This document shows positions 51,301-57,300 of a stretch of 64,000 nt of DNA, piece by piece. The position numbers were made by a program. Position 1 is the stretch's first letter. The number at the start of each line of letters is the position of its first letter. This DNA comes from Blastocatellia bacterium (GTDB taxonomy: Bacteria; Acidobacteriota; Blastocatellia; RBC074): assembly GCA_033763135.1 (NCBI GenBank), contig JANRKY010000130.1, positions 33,404-97,403 of the forward strand, in the 5' to 3' direction.

Positions 51301-54300
51301 TGGGTTGCCGCCTTTGAGCGACTGGCCGGTTTCCGCGACGCACGGCTCGAAATCCGTGTTGGCCTCTTTGCCTCGAATTTTATCGCTCACGGGAGCCACC
51401 GCGGCTTTTCCGGTCGCGGTTACGCTGGGCAACGCGGCCCAGGTAACTCTCTCAGTAAGCTCGCAGCCAGCGCGCGTCAGATATCCACTCAGCTGCCGGG
51501 CCGCATCAAAGCGCAGCCCGTCCACAAACAGAATGCACTCTCCTTCTTGACCGGCCTGACGGGCCTGACGAGGCAAAGTCCCTGCCGCATTGATCGAATC
51601 GCCTGGATAGCCCTTTTCCGCCACGACCTTTTGCAGGTGACGCGCGGATTCCTCCACCCACGGCAGATAGACGGCGCGAATCGCGGCCTTGACGGCGTCG
51701 AAATCCGGTCCCTGGTCCACGTGCGAAAGCGCAGCCATGACCGCCTGGTCGGCGCGCCAGCCCCGATCCTGATATCCCTTCGCCAAGTCCTCGGCCGTTC
51801 CGGCGGCAAGGCCGTTGTGCGTGGCTTCGACCAATAACGCCAGGGGTTCCAGGGCGCAAGCCAGCGGCGCCTCTTCAAGTTCGGCCCAGATGAGTTGCCG
51901 CCGCTGCCCATGCAGCTTTTCCAATTCCAATAGTTTTTTTCCAGCCTCGTGGGCGGGCAAATCGCCCAGCGCGAGCAGATCCTGTCGCAGCCGTCCTTCC
52001 TGCTCCTCATTCCATTGGGGCCACCCACCGGCCGAATCGGCATCGGTAAAGAGATCATACGCGGGCGGCGAGCATTTGCGGATATGGCGGGGAATCTGCG
52101 GATACCGCTTCGGCGCCTCGCAAAACCGCTCCCATACGGCCTGCCAGGGACCTTTATGAGCAGCCAGTTTTGAAGCGCCCGTCAGCACGCCCTCGCTTTG
52201 CGGATTGAACCCGAGCTGGGAAATGCAAACCTCGACAAACGCCTTCCATTCGTTTTCTCCTCGCCCATTCCGGAAAATCTCTCCCTGATCCAACCACAGT
52301 AAAAGATCGCGCACCGGATCGCCGCCTGTCAGCAAGGTATTGAAATAGTCCTTATCCAGGCGCTTCCCTTTCAGCAATTCAACATCTTCATCCACAAGCC
52401 GGGAGAGCGCGAACTGCATCGCGTTCCTGGTTTCATTGTCCTGGGCGACGTCCAGCCCCAGACCGCCCTGGTCCGATTTTAGAAAGGCGAGAATCGTCCA
52501 ATCCTTCGCGTTAAGCTGTGACCAGAGGACGCCGCGATATTGCAACTCGGCGAGCGGCTTCAAATGCTCCGGGCAGTGATCCACGGCCCGCAATTCCTGC
52601 CGGCTTACGCCCGGTAAGTAAAGAATGGGCGCTTGCCCGGGCGGCAGCCGAACTTCACTGAGAACTCCCGCAATCGCGCAACGCAGCCAGATCGCCGGCC
52701 CGGTCCGTCTTTCAACCGCATATTCCCCAAGAACCAGCAGTTCCGCCAATTCCTGTTGCAATCGCGGGATCACGGCTTCCCATTGGCGATCCGCATCCGG
52801 CCAGAGAATGCAAGCCGGGGCGACCTGCACCTCCGGATTGTATGCGGCGGCGCTGCGAACAGCTTTCAGAAGCGCTTCGATGACTCTCATAACAACCCTT
52901 GCCGATCGGCTTCGAACCAAACAAACGGTGAATGCTCTTTCAGGAAATCCGCGGGGTATCTGCCTTGGCAATAGTATTGATAATGCCGCGCTCGCATCTC
53001 GCGATTCCCCGCATCATCCAAACCTAATCGTTCAATCGTCTTCTCCACCTTGATCCGTGTTGCAGCTTGAAGTCTTGGTTTGGGATAAATCCGCCCGCTG
53101 ACCAGTTCCAGTTGAAACCACCCGGTTCGAATTGTAAAAGGGTCGAGCACGTCGTCATATTCCAGTTTGCGGCTGTTCATCGATCTGCAGGCCAACCGGT
53201 AATTCCCCCATTCATAAGCCTGATCCGCGCTCTGAGATTTGGCGATAAAATGATCCACGCTGCCTCCGCCGATGACCCGTTCAAAATGGACGCACAGATA
53301 CGCGCAGGTTCCCTGATAGACCTGGTACAAATCGTCGAGGCAGTCTCGCCAGTATGGTTGTATCTTGGCCTTTGGCGGGAGCGGCTGATGAAGGAGGATG
53401 TTCCTGCGATTCAGGTGCGCCAGCCCTCTCTGGCGCACCTTACGATCGAAATCGGCGGGCTCGGGCTGTGCCGTCACACGAATCATGCAAGCCATCCCTT
53501 CTTTTCGGCCACAAACCGCCATCGCATCCAGAAAGGGTCGGTGTCTCCAAGCACTTCGCGCAGTTGAGCATCCAGCTTTTTGGCCTGGCTGGCGCCGAAT
53601 TTTTCATCGCTGAGCGCTTTCGCCGCCTGCGCCAAGACTTCCTCGGATTCCTCTGAGCGGCCGCTTTCCATATCGAAGGCCTGACTCATCAGCCAGTTCG
53701 AGGCGTCGCCGCGCCGCACAAAATCCCGTCGGGTCAGCTCGACGCGAGCCCCTATGGTCTCGTTCGTCACAAAATCCAGATCGAACCAGGCGTCTTTTTC
53801 CAGATCGAAAAACGGCTCGACCGAAGCCATCACCAGCGGCGAATGCGTTGCCGTGATGATCTGCACCTCCGCTTTATTGCTCAGCGATTTCATCACGTTC
53901 AGCAGGGCGCTGATGATTCTTCTTTGCCAGCGTGGATGTAAATGGGCCTCGATTTCATCGATCAGAAAGATGATCTGGGAAGCGCTCTTCTGACCCAGCA
54001 GCTCACTGGCTTTGAGGTGCTCTTCCCAACTCCAAACCAACAGATAGGCCAACGCGATGATTCGGCGAATGCCGGCCGAAGCGTATAGCACCGGGACCGA
54101 CTGGCCATAGGGCATTTTCAGGGTGGGGATATCCCTGGCGTCATCCAGACTGATGCGCGTCAAATCCCCTACTTCAATCTTCTCTTTCTTCGAGGGCGAA
54201 AGCGCTTTCAAAACAGCCTTCAACCGCTTGAAGGCCGGACCATTCTCTTTCTGCCACCCTGCCCAGTCGGAGATCAGACCATTGCATAACAGCTTCTCAT

Positions 54301-57300
54301 CCTCGTCCCGCAAACCATCCCAGACCTCTCTTGAACTAAAGACGTAGGCGGGCGGGCGATCCTGAACATCGATGTTGCCTTTCTTCCGCCAATAATTGCG
54401 GGCCGGGTCCCAGACGGCAAAGCTGCCGTCCACCTGCGCGTACAGCACTAGGCCGGGATTCGAAGGCCGCCCGGCTTTCCCCGTCCAGGCCTGCTCCTGC
54501 CTGTCAAAGGCGCTCGTATAAGAGACCTTCGGTTTCGTCTTGGAAGTGAACGAAAACTCGATCGTCGCCTTCCCCGTCTCGCGGGGTTTGGCCATCAATC
54601 CCGCCGGCAGCCGCCTATTGATCTCCGCCGGCCATTTCCGGGTCAGCGCCCACCAGGCGATATCCAGTAAAAAGCTTTTGCCCAGGCCGTTATCGCCCGT
54701 CAATAAGTTCAGGCGCGAGCCGAACTCAAGCTCCATTTTCGGCGCCGGACCGACATTGGTCAGGCAAAGATGCGTTAGCATGACGTTTCCCTTTTGCTCG
54801 CATACCTCGCGAAATGTTCAATCGTCGAGCGATTCAGCCTCGGCGCTCCTTCGCAACAACCCGAAATTCCCTTTGAAGCCGGACCGAGAATCGGAAATGC
54901 CTCCATTTACCGACTTCCTTTAAGACCTTTTCGGGCTGCCTGCTTCTCTTCAATCTTCAAATGGTAATCATTAATGCGATCGCCGCCAAATACCTTGTAC
55001 CATGGAGCCGTCTCCACATCCTTGCCCCGATCCTTCTCCCATTTGACGTTGGGTTTGTCGCGCAGCACGCCGGCGCCTTTCCTGCCCACATCGGGCACGC
55101 TCAGGAATGGGCGGATGTTCAGGCGCACGCCGTCATTCAAATCCGGCTCCCAGCCGATGGGCTGCTGTTCAATCGGTTTCCAGCGCACGAAGATGTCATA
55201 GGGCGCTTCGCCCTCCAGGATCAGCTCCAGGCGTTTTTTGAGCGCCTCGGCGGCGGCGAGTTTTTCCTCGGAACCATCCACGCCGCCGGCCCTGTCCTGT
55301 TTCTGACGGGTGATCCAATCTCCCAGGTAGGTGTAGATGAGCGTTTCGAGCAGCCGGCCATCGAGCTTGTGATAATTCACCAGCGCGGCGAACCCGTCGC
55401 GCAGCCCATCCCAGATGTGCCAGATGAAAGGGCGATGATGAAAGAGGGCGCAATGCTGCGCGAAGAACTTGTCCCGCAGCCACGTCTCCAGCGATTTGCC
55501 TTCATGGCCGGCGGATGTGAGCAGCGCGCCGAGCGTCTGCGTGCTCCACGCCTCGCCATACGCCGCGGCCAGCAATCCCAACAGCCGGTCGGCGGCGGGC
55601 GCTTCGCCGCGAACCGCCGGCAGGCAGAGGATGCCGTCTTCGTCGGCGTAGCCATCGAGCGCGGCGGCGCGTTCGACCCATTCGCGGGACTCGTCGGAGA
55701 GGTCCATCTCCTTGTTCAACTCAGCAGGCCAGCGGTAGCCAAGTAGGCGAATCACAGCCACCTGGAGCGGATCATCACTTGGGGCTGGATGGCCATGGAA
55801 GATCCATTGGGTCGGGTTATTAGATATTTTTTTAGGCAATAGATAAGTGCGGCCTGAATTAACCTCAAACCCAACTTTTGTAAGAACGCTCGTTGACGCT
55901 GAAACTCTGGGATCAAGTGCTCTCACTTGATCTTCATATTCCTTTGACTTTAGGAAATGGTAGATTGCGCCAAGGTCACTTCCATTCTTGGGGCATATAA
56001 GGACTGCGCCTTTTGAAAATGATCCGCCATCGAATAGAGTTGTTGAAATACCTCGGACTCTTCCTACCAATACACCTTTTTTTTCCCATAATTCGGTGTT
56101 TTGGATTCTTGCTTGAGGACTCTTAGCAAGTTCCCCTGTCCCACCCTCCCAGAGCATTAACATCTCTCGCCCACCCCATGGATTTGACATTCCATCCGGG
56201 GACAAATATGCGATCCAGGAACTATCCCATTTAACTTCCCAATAATATCGTAAGAATCTATCCGCATCCCCAGTTGAACAGCCTTCGCCTGATATTACGT
56301 ATATATTGAGTAACTTCGATGTTTTTAGTGGATGCAATGAGATCCTAAAGTCGGGGTTATTGAGCTGGCTTTCTTGGCTTACCGAGAAAATGACGCCCAA
56401 TTCGTCATGGGTTTCGTTCTTGAGCCCAATAATTTTTTCTTCTCTTGTGACAATTGGCTTGTTTGGCTTGCTTGACAGATCAATTGCAGAGAAAGTGTTG
56501 TCTTTAGGAGGCGGTGAACTGGCAATTCCAACGAGAACTGTATTTGGCCCCCTGTTTCCAAACGATCCCCAGGCTTCCTCTCCGAGAACAACCGAAAATA
56601 ACCACCGTCTCGATCGAATAATATTCTCTCGGTATCTTGCATAGCTTCGCCCCACCCACCAGTTTTGTGGAAGTACCAAACAGCAGACGCCCGCTCCACG
56701 CATATACTCAAAAATTCTTTCAAGCATTAAGGTTGCCAAATCCCCAGAAGCTATAGCCAAGTGGGCATCGGCAAAGTCTTTTAACTCTTGTGCGTGACCT
56801 TCTCTACCAAGATAAGGAACGTTTGTAATAACCAACTGATAGGCAAATGTCATCAAGGTTGCTGCTTTTGCGATGCCCTTAGCAATAACCCCCATCTCAG
56901 TCTTTTCATCATCTCTCTCTCCAGACAAAGCCTTATTCAAAAGCGGGCCAACATCTTCCCACTTGAGCTCAAATAGAGAGCCTTTGGCAAGGCTAATCTC
57001 TGGATTGATAAGGCTGCCTAGTACAGGCGCATCATTGAACAGTTTGTAAAGCGTTTCCAACGCCGCACTCAGATTGACATTGCCGCTCGCCAGAGCAAGC
57101 CATTCTCCCCTTTTTGCGCTGATAGCCAAGCCTGAGCATGCAAGATTTAATTCTGGCAACATCCTATATCCGCCAGTATTGTGGTAACGCCAAGCCGTCA
57201 GCGCGAGTGCAAACGCAGCCAACTCGACACAACGCTGGTCCAGTTCCAGCCCGTGCAGATTCTGACTTAACACCGCATCCACGGCGTCACAAGCCGAAAG

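Follow-up and report, generated by a model that had tools for sequence, protein, structure and literature searches.

What is a two-gene cassette for an ATP-binding cassette (ABC)-type ATPase and an HNH nuclease doing inside a type 1 bacteriophage exclusion (BREX) operon: is it a working part of BREX, or a separate defence system that is carried along with it? The question is raised by a 64,000-nucleotide stretch of the genome of a Blastocatellia bacterium (Acidobacteriota; GenBank assembly GCA_033763135.1, contig JANRKY010000130.1, positions 33,404 to 97,403), here called the window, in which such a cassette lies between pglX and pglZ. On the evidence of profiles, motifs and gene order, the pair is a bona fide Septu system, PtuA and PtuB, sitting in a variable pglX-pglZ slot of an intact type 1 (PglZ type B) BREX locus. 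Comparison with related loci indicates that it is probably an autonomous and exchangeable cargo, a second defence layer sharing expression and inheritance with BREX.

The ATPase gene, ptuA (53483-54781, minus strand), encodes 432 residues. Its product matches the PADLOC PtuA model PDLC00307 (E 2.4e-185) over residues 1-430 and model positions 1-422 of 424, and dozens more PtuA models match; the PADLOC AriA model gives a much weaker match (E 6.9e-39), and Pfam AAA_21 is also matched (E 1.4e-24). The motifs that a first-pass annotation had read from the sequence were all recovered, with Walker A at 29-36 (GDNGLGKS, including K35), Walker B at 272-276 (FLIDE, including D275/E276, then IEAHLHP) and the H-loop at 310-314 (TATHS, including H313); together with a signature-like S235-A-G237, these motif residues do not vary among 53 homologues. 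An AlphaFold2 model built from the 53 homologues reached a predicted local distance difference test score (pLDDT) of 87.9 and a predicted template modelling score (pTM) of 0.84. When it was compared with the PDB using Foldseek, ranks 1-42 were all PtuA (best 8eea_D, E 1.4e-17, template modelling score about 0.55), from the E. coli Septu structures 8EEA, 8EE4 and 8SUX and from the retrons Ec78 and Ec83. Identity to the solved PtuA chains is 15-19%, with the match to PDB sequences confined to the C-terminal half; for the region from Walker A to the signature motif the model predicts a largely beta-rich structure, and three C-terminal helices are predicted at 377-427. The suggestion that the ATPase is short and divergent and may be a distinct variant was not borne out: 432 residues is a normal length (the solved E. 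coli PtuA has 465), and existing PADLOC Septu models match from end to end. The subfamily is also a populous one, with over 6,700 proteins at E<1e-10 and 60-88% identity across many phyla.

The nuclease gene, ptuB (52887-53486, minus strand), matches the PADLOC PtuB model PDLC00348 (E 4.4e-72) and 27 further PtuB/HNH models, and has weak NCBIfam matches under the cut-offs (TIGR02646, E 4.6e-7; PtuB NF041761, E 2.3e-6). As listed, the small open reading frame (52887-53522) has 211 codons from its first ATG, a start that overlaps ptuA by 40 nucleotides (nt), whereas the ATG at 53486 yields a protein of 199 residues and an ATGA overlap with the ptuA stop. We assign PtuB the shorter length because the PADLOC model aligns from M13 of the longer frame, nearly all homologues have 199 residues and an identical NCBI protein has 199 as well. 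The first-pass annotation was right on the size of the ATPase and on the overlap but not on the 211 residues, which could not have been reconciled with the overlap that it described. In 199-residue numbering the HNH-like motif, correctly noticed earlier, reads C61..C65..D78-H79..K83..N95..C100..N104..K107, and 40 homologues show no variation at D78-H79, N95 and N104. A single-sequence phmmer search of PtuB against PDB sequences returned no match; in a profile search of the same sequences the best matches were PtuB chains, weak ones, with H79 and N95 aligned to the catalytic histidine and asparagine. E. coli Septu cannot do without the equivalents of these two, H75 and N91 (PMC13096335). Profile matches of this strength and thousands of homologues show ptuA and ptuB to be real genes and not chance open reading frames. 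PtuB's C-terminal domain (141-195) is predicted as three helices; three predicted C-terminal helices in each protein are consistent with the nine-helix bundle in which the PtuA C-terminal helices (PtuA-CTE) and the PtuB C-terminal domain (PtuB-CTD) dock (PMC12819146).

Could the pair have nothing to do with a Septu defence, being instead a housekeeping RecF/RecN/SbcC-like ATPase next to an unrelated small protein, or what is left of a decayed type I-A retron? The N-terminal part of PtuA does resemble RecF/RecN/SMC heads weakly (E about 1e-5), and PtuAB pairs also serve as effectors of type I-A retrons, yet we find either origin scarcely credible. NCBIfam housekeeping scores fall far under the curated cut-offs (RecF 24.5 bits against 172, RecN 24.4 against 408, SbcC 14.7 against 478), Rad50 first appears among the fold neighbours at rank 43, behind the PtuA chains, and the catalytic residues are invariant across homologues; the ATPase does group with defence PtuA, as had been proposed, and not with RecF or SbcC. 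As for a retron, the cassette abuts pglX and pglZ, leaving no room for a reverse transcriptase gene, a scan of 45-64 kb found no Rfam family, and the NCBIfam retron equivalogs stay far under their cut-offs, the one for retron-Ec78 PtuA at 69.5 bits where 500 are required and the one for PtuB as well. The type I-A retrons (Ec78/Eco7, Ec83) do carry a homologous ATPase-HNH pair that is among the best PDB matches for both window proteins, but gene content and the Rfam scan place no adjacent reverse transcriptase or msr/msd at the window locus, and retron PtuA is 542-552 residues long, with about 100 residues that the window protein lacks. As its surroundings contain neither a reverse transcriptase nor retron RNA, the pair is of the stand-alone Septu type and not a retron I-A effector.

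Compared with stand-alone Septu itself (E. coli 8EE4/8EE7/8EEA, and Ec-B88, which cleaves tRNA-Tyr), the window pair has the same two-gene operon with the ABC-ATPase first and the HNH gene second, end-to-end matches to the PADLOC Septu models, a PtuA fold nearest to solved PtuA, the conserved catalytic residues K35, D275/E276 and H313 in PtuA and H79/N95 in PtuB, and predicted C-terminal docking helices in both proteins; it differs in sitting inside a BREX operon instead of standing free. PARIS (AriA/AriB) and the Gabija/OLD systems use a TOPRIM nuclease, with the helicase GajB in Gabija, whereas the partner here is an HNH protein and the cassette has neither TOPRIM nor helicase.

Given a clearly assigned Septu pair, the question of whether it belongs to BREX could be addressed by its distribution. 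The upstream border of the site is formed by pglX (54907-58278, minus strand), encoding a BREX-1 adenine methyltransferase of 1123 residues with a full-length match to PADLOC PglX (PDLC02528, 1577 bits) and the Pfam domains MmeI_Mtase and Eco57I; downstream lies pglZ (50524-52890, minus strand), encoding a BREX-1 phosphatase of type B with 788 residues (NCBIfam NF033450, E 1.7e-288; PADLOC PglZ PDLC02566, 1083 bits), the true start of which is M28 of the listed TTG reading frame, since the NCBIfam and PADLOC alignments both begin there. Two samples of 80 loci each, 160 related loci in total, were surveyed. The first comprised the 80 genomic loci closest to the window PtuA (L001-L080), with BREX genes located by tblastn, and 62 of these were informative. 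The arrangement pglX..ptuAB..pglZ was found in 30 of the 62, 25 of them complete and five showing ptuAB-pglZ with too little upstream sequence. These 30 BREX-1 loci span Bacteroidota, Planctomycetota, Desulfobacterota, Magnetococcales, Pseudomonas, Halomonas, Zoogloea and others, and the same layout occurs in cultured bacteria, namely Aeromonas caviae KAM479 and isolates of Pseudomonas, Halomonas, Zoogloea and Salinicola. The distance from pglX to ptuA ranges from 12 to 8,366 nt across them, because further same-strand defence genes sit between the two (GmrSD-like/HEC-06, HEC-01A, Ppl-like, SIR2-like, TIR and PDC-S28). The remaining 32 informative loci have no BREX-1 nearby and highly diverse neighbours: two copies lie within or next to BREX of another type, others beside a type III restriction endonuclease, a GmrSD-like gene, a MADS-like ATPase or PDC-S01. 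A search of a plasmid collection gave six matches, none of them usefully annotated.

Seen from the side of BREX, the same junction has many tenants. The second survey started from the window PglZ and covered its 80 nearest metagenomic loci (L081-L160), of which 63 were informative: this PtuAB occupies the pglX-pglZ slot in six, the slot is empty, with pglX directly before pglZ, in 14, and other genes fill it in 43. Those other occupants include GmrSD-like genes (19 loci), HEC-01A (11 loci, with HEC-01B in six), SIR2-like (seven), Ppl-like (four) and PDC-M07 (two). In this BREX-1 clade the junction is thus filled in about three quarters of the informative loci, mostly by known defence modules, and since it is mostly filled, and by varied genes, we regard it as a cargo slot with several interchangeable occupants, Septu among them. 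The insertion is recurrent, being found in both surveys and in A. caviae. The slot usually carries from one to five same-strand cargo genes (for example L115 5371-10004, L139 about 2850-4690 and L096 2108-5513). Several clusters of slot cargo have no PADLOC match, among them a 321-residue protein, a pair of 330 and 256 residues and a 187-residue protein, each in three loci; by their position such clusters are candidates for undescribed embedded defences.

The packing of the cassette had been read as a sign that it is an integrated part of the BREX transcript. The two ATGA couplings are indeed present: the ptuA stop and ptuB start share four nucleotides at the ATG at 53486, and the ptuB stop and pglZ start share ATGA at 52887-52890, an overlap kept in 22 of the 30 BREX-1 loci of the PtuA survey. 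A 4-nt overlap likewise joins the pglZ stop to the brxL start. The overlap with pglZ was nevertheless rejected as a mark of long-standing integration: pglZ starts with ATGAGA or ATGAAA, so that a TGA is inherent in its start whatever gene precedes it, and in 32 of 56 loci without PtuAB the pglZ start is also overlapped by the upstream gene (in 17 by exactly 4 nt), including by pglX itself when there is no cargo. A coupling generic to the ATGA(G/A)A start of pglZ is not diagnostic, and lends no support to the deep integration that was read from it. The only loose joint of the operon lies on the other side of the cassette, where a spacer of 125 nt (54782-54906, minus strand) between pglX and ptuA is the largest gap, against 9-17 nt for brxA/brxB, brxB/brxC and brxC/pglX; it holds, 7 nt ahead of the ptuA ATG, an AAGGGA sequence resembling a ribosome-binding site. 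A regulatory element in this spacer was considered and rejected, as no promoter-like site was detected with a sigma-70 consensus that may miss Acidobacteria promoters, no terminator-like site was detected, no stable RNA fold was found (z = 0.74), and there was no Rfam match. A reading frame of 43 codons (54775-54906, minus strand) fills the spacer exactly, its ATG directly following the pglX stop (TAAATG) and its TAA overlapping the ptuA start (ATGCTAA); it is probably a chance occurrence, because the gap is only 12-56 nt in relatives where ptuA comes straight after pglX. The position in the operon implies, as far as gene layout can, that ptuAB is co-transcribed with BREX.

Whether the cassette is an integrated part of BREX or a passenger was also examined through a PtuA tree and protein distances. 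An own clade of BREX-embedded PtuA was looked for and rejected, as embedded and free copies are thoroughly intermixed on the PtuA tree. Spearman correlations of pairwise distances are high within the BREX core (rho 0.93 for PglZ-BrxL and 0.93 for PglZ-BrxC), compared with 0.20 for PtuA-PglZ and 0.05 for PtuB-PglZ, that is, the cassette shows no co-divergence with the BREX core. PglX and PglZ co-diverge partially (rho 0.50). The distances of PtuA and PtuB correlate with each other at just 0.48, which suggests partner swapping. In the loci of the PtuA survey, identity to the window PtuB is bimodal, about 45-50% in one group and 55-68% in the other, with PtuA at 59-76%; the pattern suggests two PtuB variants that are exchanged among PtuA backgrounds.

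It is on these grounds that we judge the functional proposal of the first-pass annotation, in which BREX discriminates self from non-self (through methylation read by PglX/BrxC) and PtuB supplies the nuclease that BREX otherwise lacks. The proposal draws on the physical nesting of the cassette and its translational coupling with pglZ, and on the unsettled way in which BREX blocks phage DNA; nuclease genes are, moreover, widely associated with BREX loci (PMC12839542). The coupling, as explained, comes with any gene placed before pglZ. The slot is empty in 14 of 63 related loci and holds other genes, mostly unrelated to PtuAB, in 43, and a BREX core whose slots are empty or otherwise filled does not need PtuAB; relatives of the cassette are intact outside BREX in about half of the loci, and show no co-divergence with it. 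Published Septu systems, too, act by host-directed nicking or tRNA-Tyr cleavage and not by methylation-guided cutting (PMC13096335; PMC12819146). A direct coupling of BREX to the nuclease is not supported, and we consider such a division of labour very improbable.

Several observations weigh against our account of PtuAB as a Septu module that is autonomous, exchangeable and co-expressed with BREX. At least eight of about 49 non-BREX copies of ptuAB are flanked by short pieces left over from pglX (3' end), from pglZ (5' end) or from both: a pglZ 5' remnant follows ptuB in L051, L036, L050, L056, L062 and L032, and a pglX 3' remnant precedes ptuA in L036, L001, L051, L047 (an archaeon) and L032; in L036 (9528-12000), hmmsearch identified a pglX C-terminus at E 4e-49 and a pglZ N-terminus at E 9e-11. 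With about half of the nearest relatives residing in BREX-1, and with these remnants, the association is tighter than that of a random defence-island neighbour, which leaves room for a BREX-specific function invisible to sequence comparison. The remnants themselves indicate that the cassette moved out of BREX loci with short flanks, or that BREX decayed around it. On the side of the proteins, the AlphaFold2 model of PtuB, built from 40 close homologues (all at least 62% identical), has a mean pLDDT of 67, and its HNH core (59-105) is modelled at a pLDDT below 50, so that the fold is deduced from motif and family; Foldseek places PtuB in all of the top eight ranks for this model, weakly (E 0.06-0.7). 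The promoter consensus mentioned above limits the case for a shared transcript in the same way.

The observations on BREX residence bear on a possible guard function, in which PtuAB would be wired to BREX and stay silent until an anti-BREX factor, such as an Ocr-like mimic or an enzyme that depletes S-adenosylmethionine, blocks PglX or BREX as a whole. PrrC, which is held by EcoprrI, and PARIS, which senses Ocr, would be its analogues. PrrC, nested in the EcoprrI type I restriction-modification (R-M) system, is likewise an ABC-type ATPase-nuclease within a modification-based system and the model for a guard, but it consists of one protein, its nuclease domain is of another kind, and for PrrC a physical link to the host system has been shown. 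A guard would account for the strong association with BREX-1 (30 of 62 and 6 of 63 informative loci, and A. caviae KAM479), for remnants that suggest BREX to be the usual home, and for the presence in the same slot of other modules of ABC-ATPase plus nuclease (HEC-01, PARIS-like, Ppl-like); guarding has been proposed for embedded ABC-ATPase systems (10.1101/2024.01.29.577857; PMC12839542). Intact copies without any BREX nearby, and the lack of co-divergence with BREX proteins, are difficult to square with it. For stand-alone Septu the reported triggers are phage proteins, such as tail fibre, and the level of ATP, and not inhibitors of restriction (PMC12819146); the one tested analogue, PARIS in a Salmonella BREX locus, showed neither activity nor a response to Ocr under the conditions tried (PMC11341690). 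A guard wired to BREX is, in our estimation, unlikely. The stronger form of the idea, that this PtuAB subfamily is adapted to BREX as a guard, with BREX-1 as its ancestral home, and is fired when phage counter-defence disables BREX, appears somewhat more doubtful still.

An autonomous cargo remains the reading that we prefer, and published Septu work allows a possible sequence of events to be set out for it. The cassette would be transcribed with the BREX operon and the translation of pglZ coupled to that of ptuB, so that Septu and BREX would be co-expressed and co-inherited. By analogy with published Septu, oligomers of PtuA would hold PtuB through a bundle of PtuA C-terminal helices and the PtuB C-terminal domain; ATP-bound PtuA would keep the nuclease quiet, suppressing nicking, until infection provides a cue (a protein of the phage and/or a fall in ATP) by which PtuB is freed or activated; PtuB would then nick DNA and/or cause cleavage of tRNA-Tyr, and the infected cell would be arrested. 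The outcomes published for Septu are DNA nicking, cleavage of the tRNA-Tyr variable loop and growth arrest (PMC12819146; PMC13096335). PtuAB would in this way act alone, as an abortive second layer against phages that escape or inhibit BREX.

Embedding of one defence system in another is not new. It has been described for BREX, DISARM, type I R-M and Hma, with Septu specifically inside Hma (10.1101/2024.01.29.577857); counts of Septu in BREX were sought in the supplements of that study (Payne et al. 2024), where no occurrences were found. Two BREX-embedded systems have been studied experimentally: BrxU (GmrSD) in the BREX locus of E. fergusonii pEFER (10.1101/2024.01.29.577857), and PARIS (ariAB) inside the BREX locus of Salmonella D23580 (PMC11341690). 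Like them, the window cassette is an independent same-strand module nested in a type 1 BREX locus, and slots of related loci also hold GmrSD-like and ABC-ATPase modules; the cargo differs, PARIS having a TOPRIM nuclease and BrxU being GmrSD, while the window has a Septu with an HNH partner. An ABC ATPase-linked HNH "dyad" of OLD type has been noted in BREX loci and read as a back-up effector (NAR 2026, PMC12839542), and at survey level it is of the same architecture class as the window pair. The article does not name the dyad Septu and, in the text consulted, says nothing of the position of the slot, of the exchange of cassettes or of scars left by BREX.

The rest of the operon is intact. All BREX and cassette genes lie on the minus strand in the order brxA-brxB-brxC-pglX-(ptuA-ptuB)-pglZ-brxL, and the full type 1 set of brxA, brxB, brxC, pglX, pglZ and brxL is present, co-oriented and near full length in PADLOC. 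In addition to pglX and pglZ, these are brxA (62305-63075, minus; PADLOC BrxA, E 1.1e-103), brxB (61736-62287, minus; PADLOC BrxB, E 7.7e-79), brxC (58289-61726, minus; PADLOC BrxC, 1671 bits) and brxL (48479-50527, minus), which encodes a Lon-like ATPase of 682 residues (Pfam BrxL_ATPase, E 7e-130; PADLOC BrxL, E 1.2e-298). The guanine-plus-cytosine (GC) content of the island (about 45700-64000) is 0.52-0.60, against 0.61-0.70 in the host flank (1-45600), which includes BatA/VWA aerotolerance genes (40845-45644), and by this contrast the BREX island looks horizontally acquired; no tRNA gene was found to mark its border. The cassette, at 0.54-0.58, lies within the range of the rest of the island, so it arrived with the island or has long been resident there. 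Within pglX, GC dips to 0.44-0.48 over 55800-57300 (codons about 330-830), compared with 0.55-0.64 elsewhere in the gene and operon, as would be expected if the central or target-recognition part of PglX had been swapped in from a donor of lower GC.

Two further genes flank the operon. Directly after brxL lies a gene for a UvrD-like helicase of 910 residues (45697-48429, minus strand), the N-terminal 230 or so of which are unassigned; its GC of 0.51-0.52 is the lowest of the island. No relative of this helicase was detected by tblastn among the 160 related loci, so it is not a regular companion of BREX, and it may be a separate defence gene. Directly upstream of brxA is a gene for a Fic/DOC-family protein (63143-63997, minus strand; Pfam E 1.8e-14), which may extend past the end of the window and occupies the position where many BREX loci carry a BrxR/WYL regulator.

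For the biology of these systems, the locus is a clean but ordinary case of something already published, since embedded defences in BREX, ABC-ATPase and HNH pairs among them, have been reported, and our understanding of Septu or of BREX is unchanged by it. What it adds is incremental: figures for the occupancy of the slot, the slot fidelity of a Septu subfamily, the scars of BREX next to free copies, and the finding that the ATGA coupling is generic. It would matter more if PtuAB guarded BREX, as an instance of cross-talk between the two; a BREX-adapted PtuAB would then stand beside PARIS and PrrC as their HNH equivalent, and would be an instance in nature of layered, wired immunity. As it stands, one Septu subfamily appears unusually faithful to the slot between pglX and pglZ, the scars beside its free copies would record traffic out of BREX, and the window offers a tidy natural example of a defence within a defence, an intact Septu together with an intact BREX-1.

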